Source: Escherichia coli (GTDB lineage Bacteria; Pseudomonadota; Gammaproteobacteria; Enterobacterales; Enterobacteriaceae). Taken from it: a stretch of 64,000 nt of DNA. A program made the position numbers and the translations under genes. Where the stretch lies: NCBI RefSeq assembly GCF_048403405.1, contig NZ_CP183129.1. One strand, given 5' to 3'. Below the pieces are notes generated by a model. That model searched no databases and was not told the origin of the DNA. It was given only the letters and a program-made list of their open reading frames with translations. Shown in pieces: positions 15,709-33,940 of this stretch; within the stretch, counting starts at the first letter, position 1, and each line of letters opens with the position of its first letter.

Positions 15709-16524
15709 CTAAAGAGTGTAGCGGATTTTAACGTGCTTATTTACAGGATAATATCTGTCACCTAATTCCTGGACTCTATTAGATATCCATTGATTTAATC
15801 GCGCATCATCTCTGTATGTTTTTACGTCCAGAACAGAGAGCAATAACATCACCAGTGATTCAGGAAAAACAGGGTAGATATTTTTTAAGTGTAATAATAA
15901 TCCATGCGCAAGCGCCTGCTTAATGGGCGCGTCGGTCTCCGGGATAGACGACATTTCGCGAAGCCATTTTTCCACATGCATACACTCTTTCCCTTTAGGG
16001 AAAAGTCTCAGCAAAGGCATATGGTGTTCAAGAAGAATACATTTGCAATCTGTTCGCACTGAATCGATAAACTGCACTAATTTCTTAAGCCCGGTAAAGC
16101 GTCCAGCCTGCACATTTGCTTTAATATCAAGAAACGCATCGTCCTGGTCATATACCCAAACTGTCCCTTTTTGATTTTCAAGTATGCGAAAAACAAACTT
16201 AACCGGGTGATCAGGGTAATCCATCCAGTCATAAAACCCAGGGAAATCATTAAACTGCACATTTATGGTGAGTGCGTTATCGTCTGACCACTCACAGTCT
16301 CGTACGGCAGCCATGAGATGAATGAGTTTGTCGTCATCGACTAAATCATCACGACAATCATAAGGATAATCATAATATTGTTTAATCAAAACCTTGAATA
16401 TATCGACACAGGAAACCAGGGAGCTTTTGATATCCTCTGGTAACTGATTGTTTTTAACCGTATTAAGTATGCTTTGTTGCGTATATGGCATCAAATTATT
16501 GTGCGGAGCTTTTAATGATATCAT
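15709..16524 (-). CDS. yahL: Uncharacterized protein
   Basis: 271 aa ORF; AT-rich, no recognisable catalytic motif. Confidence 0.7.
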   Translation of the reverse strand: MISLKAPHNNLMPYTQQSILNTVKNNQLPEDIKSSLVSCVDIFKVLIKQYYDYPYDCRDDLVDDDKLIHLMAAVRDCEWSDDNALTINVQFNDFPGFYDWMDYPDHPVKFVFRILENQKGTVWVYDQDDAFLDIKANVQAGRFTGLKKLVQFIDSVRTDCKCILLEHHMPLLRLFPKGKECMHVEKWLREMSSIPETDAPIKQALAHGLLLHLKNIYPVFPESLVMLLLSVLDVKTYRDDARLNQWISNRVQELGDRYYPVNKHVKIRYTL

Positions 16525-16691
16525 CGCGATCTCTCTTAAATAAAAATAAACGTCGCAGATAATAAAGCTCTGATTAAACCAGGCACTATCAGAAATCGCT
16601 CATAACTAACGTGTGAAGTATTGTGTACTGGAGGGAGTTAATTTAACAATTTGAATTTACGTTATAGGTTTTACTGCTACTTTGATATTAT

Positions 16692-16729
16692 TTCGCTCTC
16701 CTTAACTAAAAAGTTAAGTGGAGAGCGAA
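16692..16729. other. Long inverted repeat (10 + 6 bp arms) immediately 3' of yahK
   Basis: ttcgctctcc-ttaact-aaaa-agttaa-gt-ggagagcgaa; no clear U-tract on either strand. Confidence 0.5.
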
Positions 16730-16766
16730 GTTAATATGTTAAACCACAGGGTATTTATTAATTTTT

Positions 16767-17816
16767 TCAGTCTGTTAGTGTGCGATTATCGATAACAAAA
16801 CGATATTTCACATCTCCTCGCAGCATTCGCTCATAGGCTTCATTAATTTGATCGGCCCGAATCATCTCTATATCAGCCACGATGCCATGTTCGGCGCAAA
16901 AATCGAGCATCTCCTGAGTTTCTGGAATGCCGCCAATCATAGAACCGGCTATCGCACGGCGTTTCATGATCAGGTTGAAAACTTCCGGCGATTTATGCGG
17001 TGTCGCAGGCGCACCAACCAGCGTCATGGTGCCATCACGCTTCAGCAAGGTGGTAAAATCGTCGAGATTATGTGGCGCAGCTACTGTATTCAAAATGAAA
17101 TCGAAACTCTTGAGATGAGCCGCCATCTCATCGGCATTGCGTGAGTTAACAACTTCATCGGCCCCCAGGGCTTTTGCCGCTTCGCGTTTTGACTCAGAAG
17201 TGGTAAATGCCACCACATGCGCCCCCATCGCGTGGGCCAGCTTAATCCCCATATGTCCCAGACCGCCGATGCCGACCACGCCCACTTTTTTACCCGGACC
17301 GACCTGCCAGTGACGTAGCGGCGAATACGTGGTGATCCCTGCACACAACAAAGGTGCCACCGCCGCCAGCTGCTCTTGCGGGTGACGAATACGCAGAACA
17401 TATCGCTCATGAACGACGATCTGTTGTGAGTAGCCGCCCAGAGTATGGCCCGGTTCGTCCGGCGTCGGCGAGTTATAGGTGCCGGTCATGTGATCACAGT
17501 AGTTTTCCAGCCCGTCTTCACACTCTTCGCAATGTTTACAACTGTCGACAATACAGCCGACACCGACCAGATCGCCCGGCGCATATTTTTCTACCTGATC
17601 ACCAACAGCTACCACGCGCCCTACAATTTCATGGCCCGGCACGCAGGGATAAACCGTCCCCGCCCACTCGGAACGGACCTGGTGGATATCGGAATGGCAG
17701 ACGCCACAGTAAGCGATTTCAATTTTGACATCATGCGGTCCCGGTTCACGCCGGGTGATATCCATCGATTCAAGTGGTTGTTTAGCGGAATATGCACCAA
17801 CAGCTTTGATCTTCAT
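16767..17816 (-). CDS. yahK: Zn-dependent alcohol dehydrogenase-family aldehyde reductase
   Basis: 349 aa; zinc-ADH motifs (GHEIVG; structural-zinc cysteine cluster CxxCxxC); Rossmann GVVGIGGLG. Confidence 0.85.
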   Translation of the reverse strand: MKIKAVGAYSAKQPLESMDITRREPGPHDVKIEIAYCGVCHSDIHQVRSEWAGTVYPCVPGHEIVGRVVAVGDQVEKYAPGDLVGVGCIVDSCKHCEECEDGLENYCDHMTGTYNSPTPDEPGHTLGGYSQQIVVHERYVLRIRHPQEQLAAVAPLLCAGITTYSPLRHWQVGPGKKVGVVGIGGLGHMGIKLAHAMGAHVVAFTTSESKREAAKALGADEVVNSRNADEMAAHLKSFDFILNTVAAPHNLDDFTTLLKRDGTMTLVGAPATPHKSPEVFNLIMKRRAIAGSMIGGIPETQEMLDFCAEHGIVADIEMIRADQINEAYERMLRGDVKYRFVIDNRTLTD

Positions 17817-17902
17817 TGTGTTTACTCCTGATTAGCTATGTGTATTTGGCGATGCCTGATATGTCATCGCGGCAAAACGCGTCCATTGAATATAGCCAAT
17901 AT

Positions 17903-18889
17903 TTAAACCACCCGATCCAGCCCCAACATGCCGCGAGCCTGAATGAAACAGAGCAGCAACGTTCCCCATAAGGCCATCGTCAGGTAGGGGCTTATACCGA
18001 GAATATTGAAGCCGCTTTCAATAATTTGCAGAAGAAACAGCGCCAGCACCATACCAATTATCCGCCCGCTGCCGCCGTCCGGATTAACCCCGCCGAGTAC
18101 TGCCGCGAGGATTGACACCAGCAAGTACGATTCGCCATAAGAGGCCTTAGCCGAGTTGAGTTTCGACATCATCAAAAATGCCGCTACCGCACAAAGCAAG
18201 GCGGAAATAACATACACCCATATCAGCACCCGACGAGTGTTAATACCGGAGTAAAGTGTTGCTCGTTCGTTAGAACCAATCAGATAAATGGCTTTACCGA
18301 GCGGCGTTTTCTCCAGCAATATCCACAGCCCCAGCGCCACTGCGGTAAACAACCACATCGGTAGCGGAATACCGAACCACTGTGCATGATTCAACCACAG
18401 CACCCATGAGGGATAATTGGCAATGGCGCTACCGCCTGTCACCAGAATATTTACCCCTTTGAGCAACGTCATCATCCCAAGCGTTGCAAGAATTGGCGAC
18501 ACTCGAATACCAGCAATCAATACGCCGTTACATAAACCGATTATCACCGCCGCGCCAGCGCCCGCCAGCAGCGTAGCGACAACCGTAGCAATACCCGGTG
18601 GATACTGAGTCGCCACCCACGCCATCACCAGTGAACAGGCGTTAGCAGTGGCTATAATTGACAAGTTAATGCCACCGCAAAGCATGGTCACCGCCATAGC
18701 CAACGCCAGAATGCCCAGCACGGGCATTTGCGAAGCGACGGACTGGAAATTACTTATCGACCAGAAAATCTCCGGCATAGTAATGCTGAACGCGGCAACA
18801 GTTAGCACCAGCAGGCCGATCAAGTAAAACTCAACGTTATTACGCCACGATTTTTTCATAGCAGACTCCGGTTCTGATGCTGACTCCAC
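17903..18889 (-). CDS. ABC transporter permease (sugar/CUT2-type)
   Basis: 328 aa polytopic membrane protein, second of two tandem permeases. Confidence 0.75.
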   Translation of the reverse strand: MESASEPESAMKKSWRNNVEFYLIGLLVLTVAAFSITMPEIFWSISNFQSVASQMPVLGILALAMAVTMLCGGINLSIIATANACSLVMAWVATQYPPGIATVVATLLAGAGAAVIIGLCNGVLIAGIRVSPILATLGMMTLLKGVNILVTGGSAIANYPSWVLWLNHAQWFGIPLPMWLFTAVALGLWILLEKTPLGKAIYLIGSNERATLYSGINTRRVLIWVYVISALLCAVAAFLMMSKLNSAKASYGESYLLVSILAAVLGGVNPDGGSGRIIGMVLALFLLQIIESGFNILGISPYLTMALWGTLLLCFIQARGMLGLDRVV

Positions 18890-19827
18890 GCCGTGGCGCT
18901 AATGCTGGCAACGATGATGATGCCGGTGATCAATGTTTGCCAGTAAGACGAGACTCCCAATAAATTTAGCCCGTTTTGCATCACTGCCAACAACACCACG
19001 CCGAGCAAAGTACCGGTTAACGTGCCGCGCCCGCCGAGCAAACTAGTGCCGCCAAGCACCACCGCAGCCAGTACTGTCAGCTCATAACCCAGAAGAGAAT
19101 CGGGGGCGACAGTCATCACCGTCCACGACTGCACTACACCCGCAGCACCAGACATCAATCCCATATAGCCATAGACGAAAAGTTGCAGTTTCAGCACGCT
19201 AAAGCCGATGCGACTGGCGGATTCACGGTTCCCGCCAAGGGCATAAATTTTGCGCCCTACACTGGTGAAATTCATGATAAACGCTGTTAGCAGCACCACC
19301 GTAATCATGGCGATCAGCGGCAGACCAAGGCCATAGTCATAGCCATCAGCATCGGTGTACTTGAACAACATTACCCCCTGCTCAAACCACGGCGGAAAGT
19401 CGTACAGCCACACACCTTTACTCAACCATAACAGCAGGCCATAGAAAATATTCAGCGTCGAAATGGTGATGATGATAGAAGGCACCCGTAGGCGATTAAC
19501 CAGTAAGGCGTTTATTAAGCCAAGTAAAATGCCGATGCCGCCCGCCAGGGCAAACGCGACAGCAAAGTTGCCACCAATTTTTTGCAGCAACAGCACCATG
19601 CCGTATTGCGCAATGATGGTCATTGCCGGAAACGAAATATCAATCCCACCGGAAATTAACACCACAAACAAACCACAGGCGAGAATAGTCAACATGGCAT
19701 AGTTATTGGCGAGATCGTACAAATTACCGAATGTCAGAAACTCGTCGCTGCGCCAGGCAAGGCCAACAAACAGCACCACAATCAGTAATGCCAGCCAGAA
19801 TTCATGGCGTTTTTTCAGTTCAGCCAT
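18856..19827 (-). CDS. ABC transporter permease (sugar/CUT2-type)
   Basis: 323 aa polytopic membrane protein; 8 nt overlap with ATPase gene end. Confidence 0.75.
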   Translation of the reverse strand: MAELKKRHEFWLALLIVVLFVGLAWRSDEFLTFGNLYDLANNYAMLTILACGLFVVLISGGIDISFPAMTIIAQYGMVLLLQKIGGNFAVAFALAGGIGILLGLINALLVNRLRVPSIIITISTLNIFYGLLLWLSKGVWLYDFPPWFEQGVMLFKYTDADGYDYGLGLPLIAMITVVLLTAFIMNFTSVGRKIYALGGNRESASRIGFSVLKLQLFVYGYMGLMSGAAGVVQSWTVMTVAPDSLLGYELTVLAAVVLGGTSLLGGRGTLTGTLLGVVLLAVMQNGLNLLGVSSYWQTLITGIIIVASISATAWSQHQNRSLL

Positions 19828-21319
19828 TTACCACCTCCGCAATCCTGGCCTGAGAACTGCTGTCAGGCAGGAAGCTATGGGTGATCTGACCTTTTTGCAT
19901 TACCAAAATCCGGTGGCTTTGATACCACGCTTCTTCAATTTCATCGCAGATCATCAATACCGCAATGCCATGAGCCGCCAGATCGCTGATAATGCCGTAT
20001 ATTCCTGCTTTGTTGGCGATATCAACACCGACAGTCGGGCTATCGAGAATCAACAGTCGTGGCCCAATCGCCAGCCATTTGGCGATCGATACTCGCTGCG
20101 CGTTACCCCCAGAAAGCGTATTCACCGGGAGATGTGGGTCAGAGACTTTGATGGTCAATGCCTTGATTAGCCTGTCCACCAGGTCACGCACTTTAGCTTC
20201 ACTCAGAAAGCCGAAGCGATCTTTTACCTTGTGAAAAACAGTGCTAATGATGTTGTCTTCAATAGATTGCGCCATCACCAAACCGCGCGACATGCGATCT
20301 TCCGAAACATAACCAATACCGTGGCGGATGGCGTCCTGGTTACTATGCAGTGTAACCGGCTGACCGTTGATGAGGATCTCACCAGCATCCGGTCGGGTCA
20401 TACCAAACAGACTCAGACATAATTCCGTGCGCCCCGCACCAAGCAGGCCAACAATCGACACCACTTCGCCCGCTTCCACCCGCAAGTTAATATTTTGATA
20501 TTCCCCATGACGACTTAAATTACGCACCTCTAGCACTGGGATGCTGGATTTTCCCTGCCACAACTCTCGCACCTGATATTCAAACTCCTGGCCGGTCATC
20601 AGGAAACCGAGTTGTTTTGTGGTCATCTCTGCAGCCGGAAAGGTCCCGACCAGCTCACCATCTTTCAACACTGAAATACGGTCGGAAACTTCCATCACCT
20701 CTTCCAGACGATGACTGACGAAGACCACGCAGATCCCGCGTTCCCGCAATTGATGCACCACCTGTAATAACCCTTGCACTTCCTGATGGGTCAGCGAAGC
20801 GGTTGGTTCATCCATCACGATCAACCGTGCGTCCTGCGCCAGTGCACGGCAAATTGCCACCAGCTGACAGCGGGCAATTGAAAGCTCAGAAACGAGCGTA
20901 TCCAGTGGCAATGTGACGTTAATACTGGTCATTGCCGCCTGCGCCACCTCACGCAGACGACGGCGGTTAACAAACAGACCGTGGTGATAGTGATTCACGG
21001 CGATATTCTCCCAGACACTCAGGTTAGGAAATAAAGAGAGGTCCTGATAAATCACCTGAATCCCCTGCGCCACCGAAGCGGCGGGTGTCAGCTTTGACCA
21101 GTTTTTCCCACCAAGCGTAATTTCCGCCCCCTCATCCGGGCGATAAACACCGGACATAATTTTAATCAACGTCGATTTACCACAGCCGTTTTGCCCGGCA
21201 AGGCAGTGCACTTCACCCGACATAAAGTCGAGAGAAACATCGCGCAGCGCTCGCGTGGCATGAAACGTTTTGTTGATATGACGAAGGGAAAGGAAGGTTT
21301 CCATAGCATCCCCTGGCAA
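19820..21319 (-). CDS. ABC transporter ATP-binding protein, duplicated ABC domains
   Basis: 499 aa; Walker A GQNGCGKST, signature LSGG in the second half; two-domain architecture typical of RbsA/LsrA-like ATPases. Confidence 0.8.
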   Translation of the reverse strand: MPGDAMETFLSLRHINKTFHATRALRDVSLDFMSGEVHCLAGQNGCGKSTLIKIMSGVYRPDEGAEITLGGKNWSKLTPAASVAQGIQVIYQDLSLFPNLSVWENIAVNHYHHGLFVNRRRLREVAQAAMTSINVTLPLDTLVSELSIARCQLVAICRALAQDARLIVMDEPTASLTHQEVQGLLQVVHQLRERGICVVFVSHRLEEVMEVSDRISVLKDGELVGTFPAAEMTTKQLGFLMTGQEFEYQVRELWQGKSSIPVLEVRNLSRHGEYQNINLRVEAGEVVSIVGLLGAGRTELCLSLFGMTRPDAGEILINGQPVTLHSNQDAIRHGIGYVSEDRMSRGLVMAQSIEDNIISTVFHKVKDRFGFLSEAKVRDLVDRLIKALTIKVSDPHLPVNTLSGGNAQRVSIAKWLAIGPRLLILDSPTVGVDIANKAGIYGIISDLAAHGIAVLMICDEIEEAWYQSHRILVMQKGQITHSFLPDSSSQARIAEVVNG

Positions 21320-21352
21320 TAAGAATCGGGGCTTTCGCCCCGAAGAAATGGA

Positions 21353-22339
21353 TTAATAAAGTGAGTCGATATTGTCTTTGTTGACCAGTAATACCTTATG
21401 GAAACGGATAATTCGCTTATCCATATCTACATCGGCCTTACCGAGATTCTCCATTTCTAATCCAGGTTTGATCTCTTCACCCTTCAGCAACGTGCTGGCG
21501 ACGGCCGCGAGTGCGTAACCTGCAGAGGCCGGATCGTAAGTAATCCCTTCGGTGATATCACCACTTTTAATCAGTGATGCCGCCTGTGAAGGGATCATCA
21601 TGCCATAGACTGCGACTTTATTTTTCGCCCGTTTCTCTTTCACTGCACGTCCCGCGCCAATCGGACCGTTTGAACCAAAGGAGACAACCGCTTTCAAGTC
21701 AGGATAGGTTTTCATCAGGTCCAGTGTGGTACGACGTGAGTCATCCACACTCTCGGCAACCGGCATGCGGCGGGTAACTTCATGCATATCCGGGTAATGC
21801 TCTTTCTGGTATTTCACCAGCAAGTCAGCCCATAAGTTATGCTGCGGCACGGTCAAACTACCCACGTAAATCACATAGCCGCCCTTGCCACCCATGCGTT
21901 TCGCCATATGCTCAACATATTCAGCGGCAAATTTTTCGTTATCAATGATTTCGATATCCCAGTTAGCACTTGGCTGACCGGGAGATTCGTTGGTCAGAAC
22001 CACAATCCCGGCATCTCGCGCTTTTTTGAATACCGGTTCCAGCACGTTGGCATCGTTTGGCACGATAGTAATTGCATTAACCTTACGGGCGATTAAATCC
22101 TCAATAATTTTAACCTGTTGCGGAGCATCAGTACTTGAAGGTCCCACCTGTGAGGCATTAACACCAAAGGCTTTACCCGCCTCGACCACACCTTCGCCCA
22201 TGCGATTAAACCACGGCATACCATCGACTTTAGAGATATTCACCACGACTTTTTCCGCTGCCTGGAGCGGCGCAGAAATTAGCGCAGCGCCTAATAACAG
22301 CGAAGACACCATATTGATAACAAAACGTTTATTCATCAT
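21353..22339 (-). CDS. Periplasmic substrate-binding protein, LsrB/RhaS-like
   Basis: 328 aa with Sec signal peptide; C-terminal ...KTYPDLKAVVSFGSNGP...VLLVNKDNIDSLY resembles LsrB ...KAYPDLDAIIAPDANAL...VIFNKDNIDKYDF as I recall it. Confidence 0.7.
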   Translation of the reverse strand: MMNKRFVINMVSSLLLGAALISAPLQAAEKVVVNISKVDGMPWFNRMGEGVVEAGKAFGVNASQVGPSSTDAPQQVKIIEDLIARKVNAITIVPNDANVLEPVFKKARDAGIVVLTNESPGQPSANWDIEIIDNEKFAAEYVEHMAKRMGGKGGYVIYVGSLTVPQHNLWADLLVKYQKEHYPDMHEVTRRMPVAESVDDSRRTTLDLMKTYPDLKAVVSFGSNGPIGAGRAVKEKRAKNKVAVYGMMIPSQAASLIKSGDITEGITYDPASAGYALAAVASTLLKGEEIKPGLEMENLGKADVDMDKRIIRFHKVLLVNKDNIDSLY

Positions 22340-22589
22340 TTCAGCCTCATTGCAGGGTAGTCAGGAAGTGTTCGCCCAAATTAGCGCGCTGGAGAGAATA
22401 AGAATTTTCGAATATTTTTATGCAGAATAAACAGCCCTATTTCAGGCAGCTATTAAAAATTTGGTTATAAATATGGACAAAACGGGCAGCAATAATAAGT
22501 GTGACATTCATCACGTAAAAAATAGCAAAATAAACAAAATTAGCGATATTTTATGTTTGTGAGCTTATTTCGCGTAGAAAAATAGTTAT

Positions 22590-23033
22590 CTACACAACGT
22601 CAATAAGGGCATATTCTTCAAAGATAACGTCCATTTCGGGTGAATAGCATCCTTCTGCCTGGAAAAAACGACGGTGTTCATTACGCCAATATTCAAGACT
22701 GAGGTCACCTTCACCTTCCTTACGGGCAAGCTCCGCGGTGACATCAGAAAAGCGCAGTAAATGCAGGCCAATCACTCTGATAACACAGACAGGCTCACCA
22801 CGGCTATTTTCTACAATCTTATACTCACCAATCATCGGAAATGCGTTGTCTTCAATACATCCCGCCAGCGAACCACAGGAAGCTGTTTTAACACCTGTCG
22901 CAATCAACGTTGCGAGGTGATCGGCCAACGCTGCTGAATCGCCAAAAGTACAAAAGGAAGCATGGGGATATTTTTGTGAGATTTTTTCTTTTATGGTCAT
23001 GAGAATATTTTCGCGATTACGGAAAAAAATCAC
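22590..23033 (-). CDS. Small hypothetical protein, possibly ASCH/PUA-like
   Basis: 147 aa ORF (likely shorter, from MTIKEK...); G-V-K-T motif faintly ASCH-like; weak support. Confidence 0.35.
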   Translation of the reverse strand: MIFFRNRENILMTIKEKISQKYPHASFCTFGDSAALADHLATLIATGVKTASCGSLAGCIEDNAFPMIGEYKIVENSRGEPVCVIRVIGLHLLRFSDVTAELARKEGEGDLSLEYWRNEHRRFFQAEGCYSPEMDVIFEEYALIDVV

Positions 23034-23297
23034 ATCTTAATTACTGTTGATAACCATCAGCAAGAGGATCATTGGTTTTTCTATGTTTAATCTTTTTTAT
23101 CCGAAGCCGGTCACATTTATGGCTTGATAAATACCTTTGTTAAAACTCACTTTTGTGTATTTCTCTCAAATAATCCCCTGGAAATTATGCCGGGAGATTA
23201 TAAAGTTCAGGATCATTCATTAGCAAACCATTGCTGCCCCACTCCCTGGGGCTTTAAATCTCTTACGATTCACCATTGCAGGCGTTTCAAATGCGTA

Positions 23298-24680
23298 TCA
23301 ACCTGCCACACTCCCCCACACCAGTTGCCCTTTATGGAACGTCGCCGTTCTCGGCGAGATACGCGCCACCGCCTCGGCGGAACAGGAGGCGTCCACCAGC
23401 ACAAAGCTGGCGTCATCCTGCGCTTTGGGCCAGACGCGCTCGCCTTTTTCATTGAGCGGCAATACATCGCCAGTGGCTAAAAACAGCGAACGGGAGAGGT
23501 TCTGTTCGTTAGGGCGAATATAGAGCTGCGCGTACAGATTGGCTTTTTCCAGCATGTCGCCCAGGCCGTAAGGCGACCAGTGGTCGATAACGCTGTCGGT
23601 GCCAGTCATCACTTTTACGCCTTTGTCGTGCAACTGTTTGAGCGGCATATGCAACGTGCCAATCGGCACCGTCGAGGCGATAGAAATTTGCTGCGCCGCC
23701 ATCCGGTGCGCCAGTTCATCTACCTGTTGCTCATTGAGCGTTGCCAGCGCAAAGGCGTGGCTGATGGTCAGCTTGCCCTTCAGTTGCGGCGTTTTCTCTA
23801 CCGTTTCAACCATATAATTGATGGCTGCCACGCCTGCCGGAGTGGTTTCGTGCAGGTGAATATCGACGCCTTTGTCGTAGTCCAGCGCAATCTGGAACAT
23901 GGTGTCGAGGGATTTTTCCATCGCGCCATCAACACTGGTTGGGTCCAGCCCGCCGACGTAATGCGCCCCTGCCTGCATCGCTTCGCGCATTAAGGGTTCC
24001 GATTTCGACAGCAGCAAACCGTGCTGCGGGAAGGCGACAATTTCACACTCGAAGCCCGCCTGACGTCGCGCCAGCACCGCCTGCAAATTTTGCAGATTTT
24101 TCAGGCCGGAAACCGGTTCGATATTGCAGTGGCTGCGGGCAATGGTAGTGCCTTTCGACTGCAATAAATCGATCAGTTTTTCCGCTCGTTCCTGCGAGTA
24201 CGGTTGCAGCTCCGGCAGCATTTTCTGCTCGAGTTTGATCATGTCCTGGATGGTGGTGCCTGCCGGACGATTGAGCGAGCGCCACGGCCCGCCGTAAAAG
24301 GTTTTGTCGAGATGAATATGCATGTCGCGGGTAGTGGGCAGCATCAGCTTACCGCCAGCGTCATAGTGCGGCAGCGTGGCGTCCGGATGCTGCTTGTTCT
24401 CGCGCAGGGCAACAATTTTGCCGTTCTGAATCTCTACGGTCTGGTGCGCCGTGCGGGTCTGTACTGCCACACCGTTTTCGTAGTCAAAACCGGTTTCCAG
24501 CAGCACGTTGTCGAGATAGTAGTGCGGGTCAGTGATTTTCATGGTGTTATTCGCGTCGCAATGGATTGTGCCAGAGACTGCCGCATGGGCGAGCGGCACA
24601 GAGGTACCAAACAGCGCGGCGGCGGTGACCATCTTACCGCTCTGGCTCAGAAACTCACGGCGGCTATTGCTTTCTTTCAT
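23298..24680 (-). CDS. yahJ: Amidohydrolase-superfamily deaminase with twin-arginine signal peptide
   Basis: 460 aa; N-terminus SRREFLSQSGKMVTAAALFGTSVPLAHA-AV is a Tat signal; metal-binding HIHLD motif. Confidence 0.85.
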   Translation of the reverse strand: MKESNSRREFLSQSGKMVTAAALFGTSVPLAHAAVSGTIHCDANNTMKITDPHYYLDNVLLETGFDYENGVAVQTRTAHQTVEIQNGKIVALRENKQHPDATLPHYDAGGKLMLPTTRDMHIHLDKTFYGGPWRSLNRPAGTTIQDMIKLEQKMLPELQPYSQERAEKLIDLLQSKGTTIARSHCNIEPVSGLKNLQNLQAVLARRQAGFECEIVAFPQHGLLLSKSEPLMREAMQAGAHYVGGLDPTSVDGAMEKSLDTMFQIALDYDKGVDIHLHETTPAGVAAINYMVETVEKTPQLKGKLTISHAFALATLNEQQVDELAHRMAAQQISIASTVPIGTLHMPLKQLHDKGVKVMTGTDSVIDHWSPYGLGDMLEKANLYAQLYIRPNEQNLSRSLFLATGDVLPLNEKGERVWPKAQDDASFVLVDASCSAEAVARISPRTATFHKGQLVWGSVAG

Positions 24681-24689
24681 CTTACGTCC

Positions 24690-25640
24690 TTACGTTTTAA
24701 TAATATGGGTGCCCGTTTCACCGCGCAGCGCCGCAGGCAGGCATTCCGGCGTGGTGATAATCACTTCTTTGCCGCCCTGTTCCAGGAACGTCAGGCTGGC
24801 GATGATTTTTGGCAACATGCTGCCAGGCGGAAAATGCCCTTCCTGCATATAGCGGGTCATGGTGGCAATATCCACCCGATCCAGCGCCTGCTGCTGCGGT
24901 TTGCCAAAGTGAATACACACTTTTTCGACGCCAGTGGTGATCACCAGAATGTCGGCGTGAATTTCACGGGCCAATAGCGCGGTAGAGAGATCTTTGTCGA
25001 TAACCGCGTCCACGCTTTGGTAATCCCCCGCTTCACTGCACACCACCGGAATTCCGCCACCGCCCGCGCCAATCACCACAAAGCCTTGTTGGATCAGCGC
25101 CTTAATGGCAGGTGCTTCTACAATACGTTGCGGTTCCGGCGAGGCGACCACGCGGCGATAGCCCCGTCCGGCATCTTCAACAAAACGCCAGTCAGGGTTT
25201 GCCTTTTGTAATTCGTCACGCTGGCTTTCACTAAAGAATGCGCCGATGGGCTTGGTGGGATGGGCAAACCCCGGATCGTTTTTATCCACTTCCACCTGAG
25301 TCACCACGGTGACGGCTTTTTTCTCACCGTGACGCGCCAGTCGGTTATTCAGCGCCTGTTGGATCAGATAGCCAATGCCGCCTTGCGTATCCGCCACACA
25401 GTTCGCCAGCGGCGTTAAGGGCAGCCCTTCGCGCTCGTGGGCTATCTCCGCGCGGCGTAAATCCAGACCGACCTGCGGCCCGTTGCCGTGGGTCAGCACA
25501 ATGTCGTAATCGGAAGCCAGCATTTCCAGCACCGTATCGGCCACGGCTTTCACCGCCTCCGCCTGATGCTCAATCGACTGGCTGGCGTTATCTTTGATAA
25601 TGCTGTTGCCACCAATGGCAACGACCACAAGTTCTTTCAT
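24690..25640 (-). CDS. yahI: Carbamate kinase
   Basis: ORF track extends to 25814; ATG at 25638-25640 gives MKELVVVAIGGNS..., 316 aa; 9 bp upstream of yahJ. Confidence 0.85.
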   Translation of the reverse strand: MKELVVVAIGGNSIIKDNASQSIEHQAEAVKAVADTVLEMLASDYDIVLTHGNGPQVGLDLRRAEIAHEREGLPLTPLANCVADTQGGIGYLIQQALNNRLARHGEKKAVTVVTQVEVDKNDPGFAHPTKPIGAFFSESQRDELQKANPDWRFVEDAGRGYRRVVASPEPQRIVEAPAIKALIQQGFVVIGAGGGGIPVVCSEAGDYQSVDAVIDKDLSTALLAREIHADILVITTGVEKVCIHFGKPQQQALDRVDIATMTRYMQEGHFPPGSMLPKIIASLTFLEQGGKEVIITTPECLPAALRGETGTHIIKT

Positions 25641-25734
25641 GTTGTTATGTCCGCTACAGAGGGTGATGGGGTTATGAGAGTGAGGTTGCCCCTCTCCCCA
25701 GAAGGGAGAAGGGATCGTAAGGTGCGTTTGCAGG

Positions 25735-27153
25735 TCAGACGCCGTAACGTTCGCACCAGCCAAGAATGGCTTTCTCGAAGCAGGCGAATGGTGGATGCAC
25801 AATGCCCGCGCCAATCATGCCGACGCCCGCATCTTTATGGGCGATGGCGGTGTTGATCACCGGCAGAATGCCGCTGCTGCCCACGCGGGTGATGTCGATT
25901 GCCGACGGCACGCCCATAAAACCGAGCAGCGGAATGGTGACGTTGGGGTTTTCACCGAGAGTGATTTCACGCATCTGGCGGGAGAAATCGATAGCCTCTT
26001 CCACCGTGCCGCCCACCAGCGCGACGATCGCGGGCGCGGTCGCCATAGCAAATCCGCCAATGCCGTAGGTTTCGGTGATGGCGCTGTCGCCGATATCCAG
26101 CCCCGAATCTTCCGGCTTATAACCGGCAAACATCGGGCCGATCACCTGCTGCGCCGGACCGGTAAACCATTGCCCCGGTAATCCGCTGACCCGCAGACCG
26201 AACTCGACGCCGTTACGCGCCATCGTGGTCACCACGGTGCTGTATTCGATGCCGTGCGCCGCATCCATCGCCGCTTTACACATCGCCATCCACGTCGGGC
26301 CGGAGAAGTAGTCGCTGCTGGCGACAAACTCAAACACTTCGCGCTGTTGTTCAATGGAATAACCTGCCTGAATAATCCCTGGCGTCAGCGCCTGAATCAG
26401 CAGCGTCGTCCCGGCGTTATTGCGGTTATGGCATTCATCGCCCATATGCAGCGCTTGCGCCAGCATTAAGCGCAGATCGATTTCGCCGATAATTTTCATC
26501 GCGTCGCGCAGCATGGGCCCCTGCACATCGCGCATCCAGTTGAGGCGGTCAATCACGCTCTGGTCGTTAGCGCCCATACGCAAAATCTTCGCCATCTGCT
26601 CGCTCATATTGGTGTAAGCGATGTTGCCGTAGGTTTTGTTTTTTACGATGTGCATAAACATCGAGGCCGAGGTAACACCCGCCATCGATCCCACGCAGTC
26701 ATGTTCGTGGCACGGCGAGAAGGTGATCTCCCCGGAGGCCGCCAGGTCAGCCGCCTCGTCGAGATCTTTCGCCAGCCCTTCGAACACCAGCGCCCCGGTG
26801 ACCGCGCCTTTCATTGCGCCGCACATTTTTTCCCAGGTCACTGGCGGCCCGGCGTGAAGAATGGTTTTCGGCGTCATTCCCGGCACCACGTTAATCGCCT
26901 GATCAAAACCAATCAGCACCGGATGCGACTGGATAATGCGCTCCAGCGCCTGCTGGTTAGCGGCGGCGATTTTGTCTGCCAGCGGCGAATCGGCAATGTT
27001 ATCCAGCGCCTGCACCACCTGCATATTGCCCTGCCCCGGCGGCGTCCAGTCGAGTTGGGTCACTTCTACATGCTGCTTTTTCAGATCATCGCTAAACATG
27101 GCGATGCCGACGTTAATAACGTTCAACGGTTGGCTAAACAGTGACGGGCTCAT
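25735..27153 (-). CDS. yahG: DUF1116-family protein (YlbE-like)
   Basis: 472 aa; ATG overlaps yahF stop by 1 nt (ATGA); strong SD GGGGAGGAAG upstream. Confidence 0.8.
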   Translation of the reverse strand: MSPSLFSQPLNVINVGIAMFSDDLKKQHVEVTQLDWTPPGQGNMQVVQALDNIADSPLADKIAAANQQALERIIQSHPVLIGFDQAINVVPGMTPKTILHAGPPVTWEKMCGAMKGAVTGALVFEGLAKDLDEAADLAASGEITFSPCHEHDCVGSMAGVTSASMFMHIVKNKTYGNIAYTNMSEQMAKILRMGANDQSVIDRLNWMRDVQGPMLRDAMKIIGEIDLRLMLAQALHMGDECHNRNNAGTTLLIQALTPGIIQAGYSIEQQREVFEFVASSDYFSGPTWMAMCKAAMDAAHGIEYSTVVTTMARNGVEFGLRVSGLPGQWFTGPAQQVIGPMFAGYKPEDSGLDIGDSAITETYGIGGFAMATAPAIVALVGGTVEEAIDFSRQMREITLGENPNVTIPLLGFMGVPSAIDITRVGSSGILPVINTAIAHKDAGVGMIGAGIVHPPFACFEKAILGWCERYGV

Positions 27154-31044: not shown

Positions 31045-31977
31045 ATGAACTCAATTTTTACCGAAGAGAATCTGTTGGCATTTACTACCGCTGCGCGTTT
31101 TGGCAGTTTCAGTAAAGCCGCAGAAGAGTTGGGTTTAACCACTTCCGCCATTAGCTACACCATCAAGCGAATGGAAACAGGGCTGGATGTGGTGCTGTTC
31201 ACTCGCAGTACCCGAAGCATTGAGTTAACGGAGTCCGGGCGTTATTTTTTCCGCAAAGCTACCGACCTGCTGAATGATTTTCACGCCATCAAACGCAGCA
31301 TCGATACTATTTCGCAGGGTATAGAAGCACGGGTGCGCATTTGTATTAACCAACTGCTTTATACGCCCAAACACACCGCACGCTTATTACAGGTACTTAA
31401 AAAGCAGTTTCCAACCTGCCAGATTACCGTGACGACCGAAGTGTATAACGGCGTCTGGGATGCGATTATTAATAATCAGGCGAATATTGCTATCGGCGCA
31501 CCCGACACACTGCTGGACGGCGGCGGCATTGATTACACGGAGATTGGCGCAATTCGCTGGGCTTTTGCTATCGCCCCGGATCACCCATTAGCCTTTGTGC
31601 CGGAGCCGATCGCCGAAAGCCAGCTGCGTCTTTACCCCAATATCATGGTGGAGGACACCGCGCATACGATTAATAAAAAAGTGGGCTGGTTGCTGCATGG
31701 GCAAGAGTCGATTCTGGTGCCAGATTTCAACACCAAATGTCAGTGCCAGATTTTAGGTGAAGGGATTGGTTTTTTGCCGGATTACATGGTCCGTGAGGCG
31801 ATGGCGCAATCCCTGCTGGTTACCCGACAAATCCATAATCCGCGCCAGGATTCACGCATGTTACTCGCAACTCAGCATTCTGCTACGGGTCAGGTGACGC
31901 AGTGGATTAAAAAACAATTTTCGCCAAATGGCATATTAACGGGGATCTATCAGGATTTACTGCATCGGGAGAATTAA
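31045..31977 (+). CDS. yahB: LysR-family transcriptional regulator
   Basis: 310 aa; N-terminal HTH ...FTTAARFGSFSKAAEELGLTTSAISYTIKRMETGL. Confidence 0.85.
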   Translation: MNSIFTEENLLAFTTAARFGSFSKAAEELGLTTSAISYTIKRMETGLDVVLFTRSTRSIELTESGRYFFRKATDLLNDFHAIKRSIDTISQGIEARVRICINQLLYTPKHTARLLQVLKKQFPTCQITVTTEVYNGVWDAIINNQANIAIGAPDTLLDGGGIDYTEIGAIRWAFAIAPDHPLAFVPEPIAESQLRLYPNIMVEDTAHTINKKVGWLLHGQESILVPDFNTKCQCQILGEGIGFLPDYMVREAMAQSLLVTRQIHNPRQDSRMLLATQHSATGQVTQWIKKQFSPNGILTGIYQDLLHREN

Positions 31978-32018
31978 TCGCTGCCAACCTCCCGATGCGC
32001 TGTGAATAGCGGTTTACA

Positions 32019-33107
32019 TCAACCACCTGCTTTCATTACCCATTCAGAGATAAATTTATTACCCGGTACTGGCGGAGAGTACAAATAGCCCTGCAAAAAG
32101 TGAACGCCTTTGCCGATCATTAAATCCGCCTGCTCCTGGGTTTCTACCCCTTCCGCCACGATACTCAGACCAGGCTTACGCGCCAGTTCGACAATATTGT
32201 CCACAATATGACCGGATATTTCGTCCACGCTCGCCATTTGCACAAATGACTTATCGATCTTAATAAAATCGACCGGGAACGCCTGCAAGTAACGATAGGT
32301 CGCATAACCCGTACCAAAGTCATCCAGCGCAAAGGTAATGTTGTGCTGATGAAGGCTGTCAAATATCGCTCTGGCTTCTGGCGTTACCGGAATAGGGTTA
32401 CGTTCCGTTAGCTCGAGAACCAGTTTGATTTTATCGTTTCCTAATTTCTTGACCAGGTTCAGGCATTCTTTTTCAAATCCCGCGGCCAAAAAACAACCCG
32501 CCGAGACGTTGATGCCAATATGGAAATTATCCGGCAGCAAATGTTTTACCGGCATCAGAATATCCGCAGTCTGTTTCATCAACTGGCGAGTCATTATGAC
32601 GATAAGACCAGATGACTCCGCCAGAGGAATAAACTGATCCGGTGGGATAATTCCCGTTTGTGGATGTTCCCAGCGGACAAGCACCTCACAGCCCGTCAGT
32701 ACCCCAGTCTGCGCGCAGAAAACCGGTTGGATCCACGGTTTAAATTCATGGTTTTCCAACGCCAGACTGATGGCTTCAGGCGTGACGATATGGTGATAGT
32801 GATTATCATTAATATATTTGTGACTATTATTACCCGTGGCGGATATGATCTCCGGATTGTACTGAAAGAAAATATCCCGCCAGAAAGTAATATCGCTCTG
32901 AATCCCCAGTTTCTCAAAGAGCTGTTTCTTTTGATGTGAAATGGTCTTTGCACTGCGATTTCTGTACTGTGATATTTCTGTTACAGACATTCCCTGCATC
33001 AGCAGCTTGAGTAGCAGTCGTTCTTTCTCGGATACGCTACCAGGCAATGACAAATGAACCGTTGTACCGAACTCTTGCAGAAAAACACGAAAATCACATG
33101 AATTCAT
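32019..33107 (-). CDS. pdeL: c-di-GMP phosphodiesterase with LuxR-type HTH and EAL domain
   Basis: ORF track 32019..33113; start at second ATG gives MNSCDFRVFLQEF..., 362 aa; EAL-domain motifs (ELTE, DDFGTGYA). Confidence 0.85.
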   Translation of the reverse strand: MNSCDFRVFLQEFGTTVHLSLPGSVSEKERLLLKLLMQGMSVTEISQYRNRSAKTISHQKKQLFEKLGIQSDITFWRDIFFQYNPEIISATGNNSHKYINDNHYHHIVTPEAISLALENHEFKPWIQPVFCAQTGVLTGCEVLVRWEHPQTGIIPPDQFIPLAESSGLIVIMTRQLMKQTADILMPVKHLLPDNFHIGINVSAGCFLAAGFEKECLNLVKKLGNDKIKLVLELTERNPIPVTPEARAIFDSLHQHNITFALDDFGTGYATYRYLQAFPVDFIKIDKSFVQMASVDEISGHIVDNIVELARKPGLSIVAEGVETQEQADLMIGKGVHFLQGYLYSPPVPGNKFISEWVMKAGG

Positions 33108-33940
33108 GAACACACCTTTTATCTTTTATCGCTGTTCAGTATGAGTGATTACCTGTGGATTCCTGAGCACACATAAGGGGTAACCATAAACATCAGCGAT
33201 GCCATACGCATAACATCCCACATCACTATCAAAAAGATTATCTTTACCTCTGATGCTCGCTCAAAAACAGTTACGCTAAATACCTTAAAAAGGTAATCAC
33301 AAGTCAAACTCAGGAGATAATCACGCAAGAATGCAATATTAAAATTCAGATACTCATTTTTGGTAATAAAGAAGTAGTTGGACTATTTCAATATTTATAA
33401 TTTCCCACTACGTATTGACGCCCATTCATGAGTAAAGGCGCATTATATGAATTTAACAATCCAGATCAACTGAAAATACCTCAACCTCATAAACACATAG
33501 CGTCAACATTCAATGACATAATGAGTAAAGATGTTGGTTATGCATACACGTCATTACTCTATGCCTATCCCTTAACAACCTGCTTTTTAAGGCTGAATCC
33601 ATTCAGCAATAGATAACCAACATTATAACAATGACAATAAAAACAATATTTAAAACAATCAATAAAATATCAGACACAGACAATTAAACCTTAAACAACA
33701 AACAGTTACATTGATTTTAGTTGATTTGCGCTACGCGTTTCCCATGAATAAAGCGTCATTTCAAATTAGCACCAATATTTACATTAAATAAGACTAAGCT
33801 TATTGAACATTCACAACAGTCCAAGCGTAGGTTTTGGGCTTCAATAGTTCTTTTCTTTTTTATTATCTGTTGCCTGGCAATCATCAATCGATACTAAGGG
33901 CTTAACTGTACACAGATATAACGTATCAAGAGGTAAGAGA
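33108..33940. promoter_or_regulatory. Unusually long AT-rich intergenic region upstream of pdeL
   Basis: About 830 bp with no credible ORF, strongly AT-biased; typical of nucleoid-protein-bound regulatory DNA. Confidence 0.4.

Follow-up and report, generated by a model that had tools for sequence, protein, structure and literature searches.

The 64-kb window analyzed here, a stretch of 64,000 nucleotides from the Escherichia coli contig NZ_CP183129.1, contains a block of about 5 kb between the genes yahK and yahJ that encodes an ATP-binding cassette (ABC) importer and a small ASCH-domain protein, all on the minus strand. Counted from the yahK side, the block comprises two permease genes (aauD and aauC), the gene for an ATPase with two nucleotide-binding domains (aauB), the gene for a periplasmic binding protein (aauA) and the ASCH gene (Table 1). 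The spacer between yahK and yahJ measures 5,481 bp in the window and 376 bp in K-12 MG1655. The human faecal isolate E. coli TUM14771 matches the window at 100% identity over 8.2 kb. With high confidence, we identify the block as the Aau locus (AauABCD; O-island 17; Z0415-Z0419 of enterohaemorrhagic E. coli (EHEC) EDL933) together with an adjacent, unrelated ASCH gene, with D-ribulose import switched by AraC and a deletion scar at the same site in K-12.

The identification is carried by the binding protein. AauA of the window matches PDB entry 9I1M over its full length, with 326 of 328 residues identical (E = 1e-213); the two differences are D200 and E297 in the window, which are V and Q in 9I1M. 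This entry is EHEC AauA crystallised with alpha-D-ribulose (Cottam et al. 2025, PMC12307932), and all six ligand contacts listed in that work (K37, W43, E118, H167, E196 and S223) are present in the window protein. O157:H7 carries the aau genes in the same order and at the same place between yahK and yahJ, with a nucleotide identity of about 98% for the O157:H7 strain TT12B, and the region upstream of aauA is 97.6% identical to that of O157:H7. No feature of the sequence speaks against the assignment. The locus differs from its O157:H7 counterpart in its host, here of a non-O157 human faecal isolate type, and in aauB, where an amber codon of O157:H7 strains is a sense codon in the window. This codon 87 (~21044-21046) reads CAG, with no internal stop over 494 aa, whereas TT12B has TAG at the same position, the Q-loop Gln of the first nucleotide-binding domain; the TT12B gene is listed in RefSeq as a pseudogene. 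TUV93-0 has the same premature stop (nucleotide 259), and strain ZAP193 was used for that reason (PMC11127945). RefSeq places the aauB start of this strain at an internal ATG (21223; 467 aa, WP_230139589.1); the ATG at 21304 restores N-terminal residues METFLSLRHINKTF... that are kept in Franconibacter and other orthologues.

The remaining transporter genes agree with this assignment in their architecture. One ~500-aa two-domain ATPase, two ~320-aa permeases and a receptor of the ribose-binding-protein fold make up the layout of a CUT2 importer (TC 3.A.1.2). In NCBIfam comparisons, the ATPase aligns over its full length with AraG, YtfR, XylG and RbsA (E ~1e-112 to 1e-127), the permeases match RbsC, AraH and LsrD, and the binding protein matches RhaS, LsrB, AlsB and RbsB; aauD resembles RbsC/LsrD/AraH permeases with every score under the equivalog cut-off. 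At 73 of the 79 related loci that were clustered, aauC lies within an intact four-gene cassette. All four transporter open reading frames (ORFs) of the window are full length relative to their orthologues and show no signs of being pseudogenes; because all four are intact, the Aau system should work in this strain. An earlier sequence-only reading of the window had described a block of this size, composition and position as a complete CUT2-type importer with an ASCH-like ORF, had named pseudogenes among the transporter ORFs as a possible refutation, and had put yahJ and yahK only a few hundred base pairs apart in K-12, where it expected the block to be absent. The refuting condition does not apply and the other points hold, with every element found where it had been placed and only remnants left at the K-12 site.

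The Aau system has been previously named, structurally solved and functionally characterised, and the block itself is not new. Z0415-Z0419 on O-island 17 were named Aau, for accessory L-arabinose uptake, by Cottam et al. (2024, PMC11127945), who found that the EHEC aau promoter is induced by L-arabinose only, not by xylose or ribose, and requires AraC. AauA binds D-ribulose with a dissociation constant (Kd) of 1.98 µM, compared with 598 µM for L-arabinose (isothermal titration calorimetry, ITC), and is shifted in its melting by 16 °C with D-ribulose as opposed to ~2 °C with D-ribose and L-arabinose (PMC12307932). Import of D-ribulose requires L-arabinose to turn Aau on, AraB phosphorylates the imported D-ribulose, and Aau provides a fitness advantage in the mouse gut (PMC11127945, PMC12307932). 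The sequence-only reading missed this existing name and characterisation (O-island 17, Z0415-9, AauABCD). Its proposal to screen the binding protein by thermal shift and ITC against pentoses and furanosyl compounds had in effect been carried out in the published work, with tight binding of D-ribulose and weak binding of L-arabinose, and the proposed ligand class covers the real ligand, the furanose-form pentose alpha-D-ribulose (PMC12307932).

A predicted AraC/CRP operator and related cassettes

Upstream of aauA, we predict an operator of the araBAD type, in which a CRP core directly precedes the AraC half-site I1, followed by the half-site I2, a -10 hexamer placed relative to I2 as at araBAD, and a ribosome-binding site (RBS) (Table 1). 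Transcription would start near 22417. The araBAD -10 hexamer is TACTGT. I1 and I2 are 17-bp direct repeats in a 21-bp register and form the sole such pair on both strands of the window, where 0.13 would be expected; of the CRP core (GTGA-N6-TCAC), the window has two copies, this one included. The informative search was that for paired, registered half-sites; a loose AraC consensus search of the window gave 363 matches where 410 were expected, which is not above chance. Like the araBAD and araFGH promoters, the aau promoter is predicted to combine a CRP site, two 17-bp AraC half-sites 21 bp apart, the second of them adjoining the -35, and a weak -10, and it shares with them a dependence on AraC that is experimental for aau in EHEC (PMC11127945). 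The CRP and AraC I1-I2 sites are not mapped in PMC11127945 or PMC12307932, and the predicted operator map is an addition to the published work.

To place the locus among its relatives, we drew on a species-level scan for AauA homologues, which covered the best 80 loci, with 79 loci mapped and clustered and 76 homologues aligned. The aauABCD cassette is kept as a unit in Enterobacterales, Pasteurellaceae, Vibrio and one Aeromonas genome. Among the loci mapped, it lies beside yahK in Escherichia only, and its context differs in every other genus. An araC gene adjoins the cassette at 26/79 loci, mostly in other genera (AraC by NCBIfam NF007860, 419 bits against a cut-off of 208), araB is nearby at nine loci, and in Pasteurellaceae the order is araC-aauABCD followed by an FGGY kinase gene.

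The scan also revealed a sister clade in Citrobacter amalonaticus, Pluralibacter, Cedecea, Serratia and Pantoea. Downstream of these cassettes lie genes for an FGGY pentulose kinase (TIGR01315, 695 bits) and a SIS-domain isomerase. In Citrobacter rodentium, the published locus for D-ribulose utilisation is Rbl (PMC12307932); we infer that the kinase-linked clade corresponds to this type. The two clades share a homologous four-gene CUT2 cassette with binding proteins ~60% identical, and the six D-ribulose contacts are invariant in both. The Rbl-like clade differs from the Aau type in its own FGGY kinase and SIS isomerase, in residue 166, which is L instead of Q, and in the absence of the AraC I1-I2 signature.

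This signature, defined by a threshold score of <= 3 with random 405-bp segments as the null, occurs at 44/59 Aau-type loci (10/11 close and 34/48 mid-distance), at 0/20 Rbl-like loci and in 2.9% of the random segments; mid-distance Pasteurellaceae loci carry a perfect I1. An alignment of upstream regions from E. coli, Klebsiella, Franconibacter, Mangrovibacter, Symbiopectobacterium and Aeromonas shows a TCCATA box, with a TAGC/TAAC box 4 bp downstream, kept across all six genera. The other conserved blocks in the same genera are the CRP core, a -10-like block and the region of the RBS and start codon. The -10 block, TTTAyTCT, is kept in E. coli, Klebsiella and Franconibacter and is looser outside these three, as in Symbiopectobacterium, while the left half of the CRP core has one-base variants in two Symbiopectobacterium loci and Aeromonas and is otherwise conserved in close relatives. 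Because Aau-type cassettes elsewhere in Gammaproteobacteria carry the same predicted operator, often beside araC, AraC control was likely inherited with the cassette and not newly evolved in E. coli. A 4.7-kb contig of a metagenome-assembled genome labelled 'Bacteroidales bacterium' (SFEK01000152.1; locus L007) is 99% identical to E. coli aauABCD; almost certainly it comes from E. coli and was binned wrongly.

The spacer between aauA and aauB contains a G+C-rich hairpin with a T-rich tail (Table 1). Neither O157:H7 nor the divergent Escherichia locus described below differs from the window at any base of this spacer (100% identity). The hairpin may act as a partial terminator or as a stabiliser of the mRNA, giving a surplus of binding protein, and may attenuate the downstream genes. 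A scan for terminator-like sites found none in the 86-bp gap between the aauD stop and the start of yahK (17817-17902), which lie on the same strand, so that transcription induced by arabinose could conceivably continue from aauD into yahK, which encodes an aldehyde reductase. Rfam gave no RNA element in 16500-24800.

Deletion of the block from K-12-type genomes

The sequence-only reading had left it between a gain by this strain and a loss by K-12, and had suggested that presence and absence be mapped among genomes. The junctions in K-12 decide for loss, because K-12 retains the 3' ends of both aauD and the ASCH gene. Of aauD, the final 72 bp survive (17903-17974) and appear in RefSeq as a partial pseudogene; on the ASCH side, 22568-22637 is left, and in it the final 48 bp of that gene (22590-22637). 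The rest is missing in two deletions (Table 1). The left junction of the first is exact, between 17974 and 17975, and its right end is bracketed to ~22483-22567; the second removes most of the ASCH gene and the region upstream of it. A 63-bp filler in K-12 has no significant similarity to the window, its collinear 13-bp match (22496-22508) scoring 21 against a shuffled 95th percentile of 24.

K-12 has its 376-bp scar, junctions included, in common with CH4811, whose flanks are 95.8% identical to the window, and with the calf isolate B1. Counted over 5,426 complete genomes, the whole block is present in 2,205 (~40%), a scar spanning both junctions in 2,805, and a third allele in 60 at an identity of at least 99%. 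The locus is thus polymorphic for presence and absence throughout the species, and its absence from K-12-type genomes is a secondary loss through one deletion allele.

A genome labelled E. coli, SCPM-O-B-8794 (locus L035, 1-8000), carries an intact aauABCD beside yahK. Its identity to the window is 91-93% in the aau genes, 88% in yahK and 83% in yahL, and this range of 83-93% at the nucleotide level indicates another Escherichia lineage. The position of its aau genes beside yahK, with a divergence like that of the flanks, fits a long residence at this site. The ASCH gene of this genome is cut after ~100 bp, with the last ~100 bp kept, and on the yahJ side the genome has sequence matching 31919-33609 instead, a sign of a separate ~9-kb deletion there.

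Given these observations, we lean towards a history in which O-island 17 is no acquired pathogenicity island but old Escherichia chromosome, derived from an ancestral araC-linked D-ribulose/arabinose cassette together with its operator, and in which the absence from K-12 reflects one ancient double-deletion allele segregating species-wide. On such a history, the 'island without a regulator' would obey the core AraC because the AraC/CRP operator was inherited with the cassette.

The main alternative, that the block is a recently acquired genomic island and K-12 has the ancestral empty site, appears improbable. The locus is catalogued as an O-island and has been called 'horizontally acquired' (PMC11127945), and its cassette is patchy across Enterobacterales, with a different context in every genus outside Escherichia. 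However, K-12 keeps coding remnants of both aauD and the ASCH gene, the identical scar occurs in diverse strains, and the divergent Escherichia genome has aau at the same site with a divergence matching its flanks. The block also lacks the marks of a horizontally acquired island (mobility genes, a tRNA/att boundary, odd composition and a clean empty site): we found in it no integrase, insertion sequence (IS) element or tRNA, and its G+C content of 0.48-0.53 is not anomalous next to the 0.49-0.57 of the flanking genes. An older gain, before E. coli diversified, is possible.

Several points weigh against our overall reading of the block as an AraC-switched Aau locus lost from K-12. Ancestral presence would lean on one divergent Escherichia genome, and apart from this genome, itself labelled E. 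coli, no other Escherichia species is found among the best 80 loci, as the recent-island explanation would also have it; the locus may therefore have been gained in the E. coli lineage and then lost through one deletion allele. The AraC/CRP operator and the -10 hexamer are predictions from sequence, and the aau half-sites differ from those of araBAD and araFGH in being two (I1) and three (I2) mismatches away from the simple consensus. The role of the hairpin is likewise predicted, and Aau function in this strain is presumed from near-identity to the EHEC system. On the relative weight in vivo of taking up L-arabinose and D-ribulose, the published work has to be consulted.

Other variation was observed at and around the site. 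In the third allele (strain CB6837; locus L005, 2089-2736), ~960 bp of unrelated sequence stand in place of 17901-23305. They code for WP_000670937.1, a 215-aa protein that has a signal peptide and for which no NCBIfam or PADLOC match was found. Among the 5,139 places matching the 8.2-kb query, ten lie on records labelled plasmids. Between yahI and yahG (~25640-25735), the window strain seems to be without ~330 bp, including yahH, that are present in K-12 and O157:H7; the gap measures 94 bp in locus L001 as against 421 bp in locus L002, and the absence of yahH would be another small indel polymorphism next door. In the calf strain B1, which has the scar allele (locus L006, 768-1817), yahK is marked as having an internal stop and a truncated yahL has an IS1 beside it, which suggests ongoing decay of this neighbourhood in some lineages.

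Table 1. Genes, predicted regulatory elements and K-12 deletions at the yahK-yahJ site, in window coordinates
Feature	Position	Strand	Basis
yahK, flanking gene	16767-17816		ORF
aauD, second permease, 318 aa from ATG 18859; ORF reaches GTG 18889	17903-18859	-	RefSeq CDS WP_000750345.1 in identical strain
Deletion 1, segment missing from K-12-type genomes	17975-22567		BLAST and sequence comparison
aauC, first permease, 323 aa	18856-19827	-	ORF, NCBIfam
aauB, ATPase with two nucleotide-binding domains, 494 aa from ATG; ORF reaches TTG 21319	19820-21304	-	ORF, NCBIfam
Hairpin TCGGGGC-GAAA-GCCCCGA between aauA and aauB	21326-21343	-	Terminator-like scan
aauA, periplasmic D-ribulose/L-arabinose binding protein, 328 aa including signal peptide	21353-22339	-	PDB 9I1M match
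RBS GAGG	22345-22348	-	Ahead of aauA ATG 22339
Predicted -10 hexamer TATTCT	22424-22429	-	Position relative to I2 as at araBAD
Predicted AraC half-site I2 TAACCAAATTTTTAATA	22467-22451	-	Paired search
Predicted AraC half-site I1 TGCCCGTTTTGTCCATA	22488-22472	-	Paired search
Predicted CRP core GTGA-TGAATG-TCAC	22501-22514	-	Motif search
ASCH-domain gene, 136 aa from ATG 23000 (RefSeq start), 147 aa from GTG 23033	22590-23000	-	Pfam PF04266
Deletion 2, most of ASCH gene and upstream region	22638-23234		Sequence comparison
Promoter-like TTGCTA-18-TATAAT upstream of ASCH gene, 10/12 consensus	23197-23226	-	Consensus scan; such matches no commoner than in shuffles
yahJ, flanking gene	23298-24680		ORF

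The ASCH gene and alternative assignments

The small ORF next to aauA had been called ASCH-like, and Pfam supports this with a match to PF04266 over residues 27-133 (E = 8.4e-22). The nearest solved structures are 1T62 and 3S9X, two uncharacterised proteins, and no NCBIfam or PADLOC family was found for the protein. Two candidate roles were set aside. A BLASTP comparison with a provisional sequence for E. coli YqfB, an N4-acetylcytidine amidohydrolase, gave no alignment at E <= 100, which speaks against a YqfB-like amidohydrolase role, and the lack of PADLOC matches speaks against a role in anti-phage defence for the ASCH protein as well as for the ORF of the third allele.

We treat the ASCH gene as an independent gene in a separate transcription unit that is removed by the same scar allele. 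It is very unlikely that it belongs functionally to the transporter, as it might if its product and the yahJ amidohydrolase jointly processed a nucleoside-like substrate brought in by Aau. The gene does share the orientation of aau, lies between aau and yahJ, and co-occurs with the transporter in E. coli, its specific segment being found in 2,213 genomes and the whole block in 2,205. This co-occurrence is explained by the scar allele, which removes both. Furthermore, the ASCH gene stands beside aau in none of the non-Escherichia loci mapped, 250 bp of regulatory sequence, with the predicted promoter of aau itself, lie between it and aauA, and its product has neither an NCBIfam or PADLOC family nor detectable similarity to the provisional YqfB sequence.

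Less probable still are the other transport functions that the family resemblance might suggest. RefSeq names AauA an 'autoinducer 2 ABC transporter substrate-binding protein' in every carrier genome listed, including the identical strain (L001 6354-7337), and this name is misleading. Aau shares the CUT2 architecture with the LsrACDB and RhaSTPQ importers, and their binding proteins lie on the same periplasmic-binding-protein branch, but AauA falls below both family cut-offs and lacks the LsrB ligand signature. For autoinducer-2 (AI-2), Pereira et al., as summarised in PMC3386761, apply a criterion of six contact residues and an LsrB identity of >63%. The LsrB contacts K35, D116, D166, Q167, P220 and A222 correspond to K37, E118, Q166, H167, F221 and S223 in AauA, so that only one of the six, K35, is conserved. 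An Lsr-type AI-2 importer, for which the RefSeq product name and a distant similarity to LsrB structures (phmmer, 80-88 bits, E ~1e-21 to 1e-24) might be cited, has a negligible probability and is effectively refuted by the curated cut-off and the ligand residues: AauA reaches 111 bits for LsrB (NF011937) against a cut-off of 384, its crystal structure contains D-ribulose (PMC12307932), and lsrK, lsrR, lsrF and lsrG are found neither between yahK and yahJ nor in the annotated neighbourhood. Import of rhamnose by a RhaSTPQ-type system, or of ribose, allose or xylose by another classical CUT2 importer, is no more credible and is rejected on the same two grounds; RhaS (TIGR02637) is the best NCBIfam match of the binding protein (E = 8e-40), but its 136.9 bits compare with a cut-off of 342.25, the other equivalogs all lie far under theirs, D-ribose and L-arabinose shift AauA far less than D-ribulose does (PMC12307932), and the promoter answers neither xylose nor ribose (PMC11127945). 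The sequence-only reading was thus right to see the binding protein as no more than LsrB/RhaS-like and, from the missing lsr kinase and processing genes, to doubt AI-2 as its substrate.

Proposed mechanism and meaning

Taken together with the literature, the locus suggests the following mechanism. L-arabinose would activate AraC and thereby turn on the aauA promoter, as shown in EHEC (PMC11127945), and AraC would act through the araBAD-like CRP/I1-I2 operator predicted here (22451-22514). Periplasmic AauA would then capture alpha-D-ribulofuranose (Kd ~2 µM) and, weakly, L-arabinose (~0.6 mM), as measured for the EHEC protein (PMC12307932). By analogy with the family, the AauC and AauD permeases and the two-domain ATPase AauB would import the sugar. 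The L-ribulokinase AraB would phosphorylate D-ribulose for entry into the pentose phosphate pathway, with a growth benefit, according to the literature, only when L-arabinose is also present.

That Aau gives EHEC a colonisation edge by scavenging D-ribulose when L-arabinose is present is published, and our analysis adds nothing categorical to it. It does provide a testable AraC/CRP operator map, and it places Aau-type cassettes, by their predicted operators, in the AraC regulon across Gammaproteobacteria, often linked to araC. It also carries a warning for annotation, as the autoinducer-2 name that RefSeq gives to AauA is wrong. For E. coli itself, the locus is a case of loss and not of gain by pathogens: one allele deleted it from K-12, A and B2-type genomes (phylogroups after the published carriage analysis), unlike what the label 'horizontally acquired' in the literature implies.

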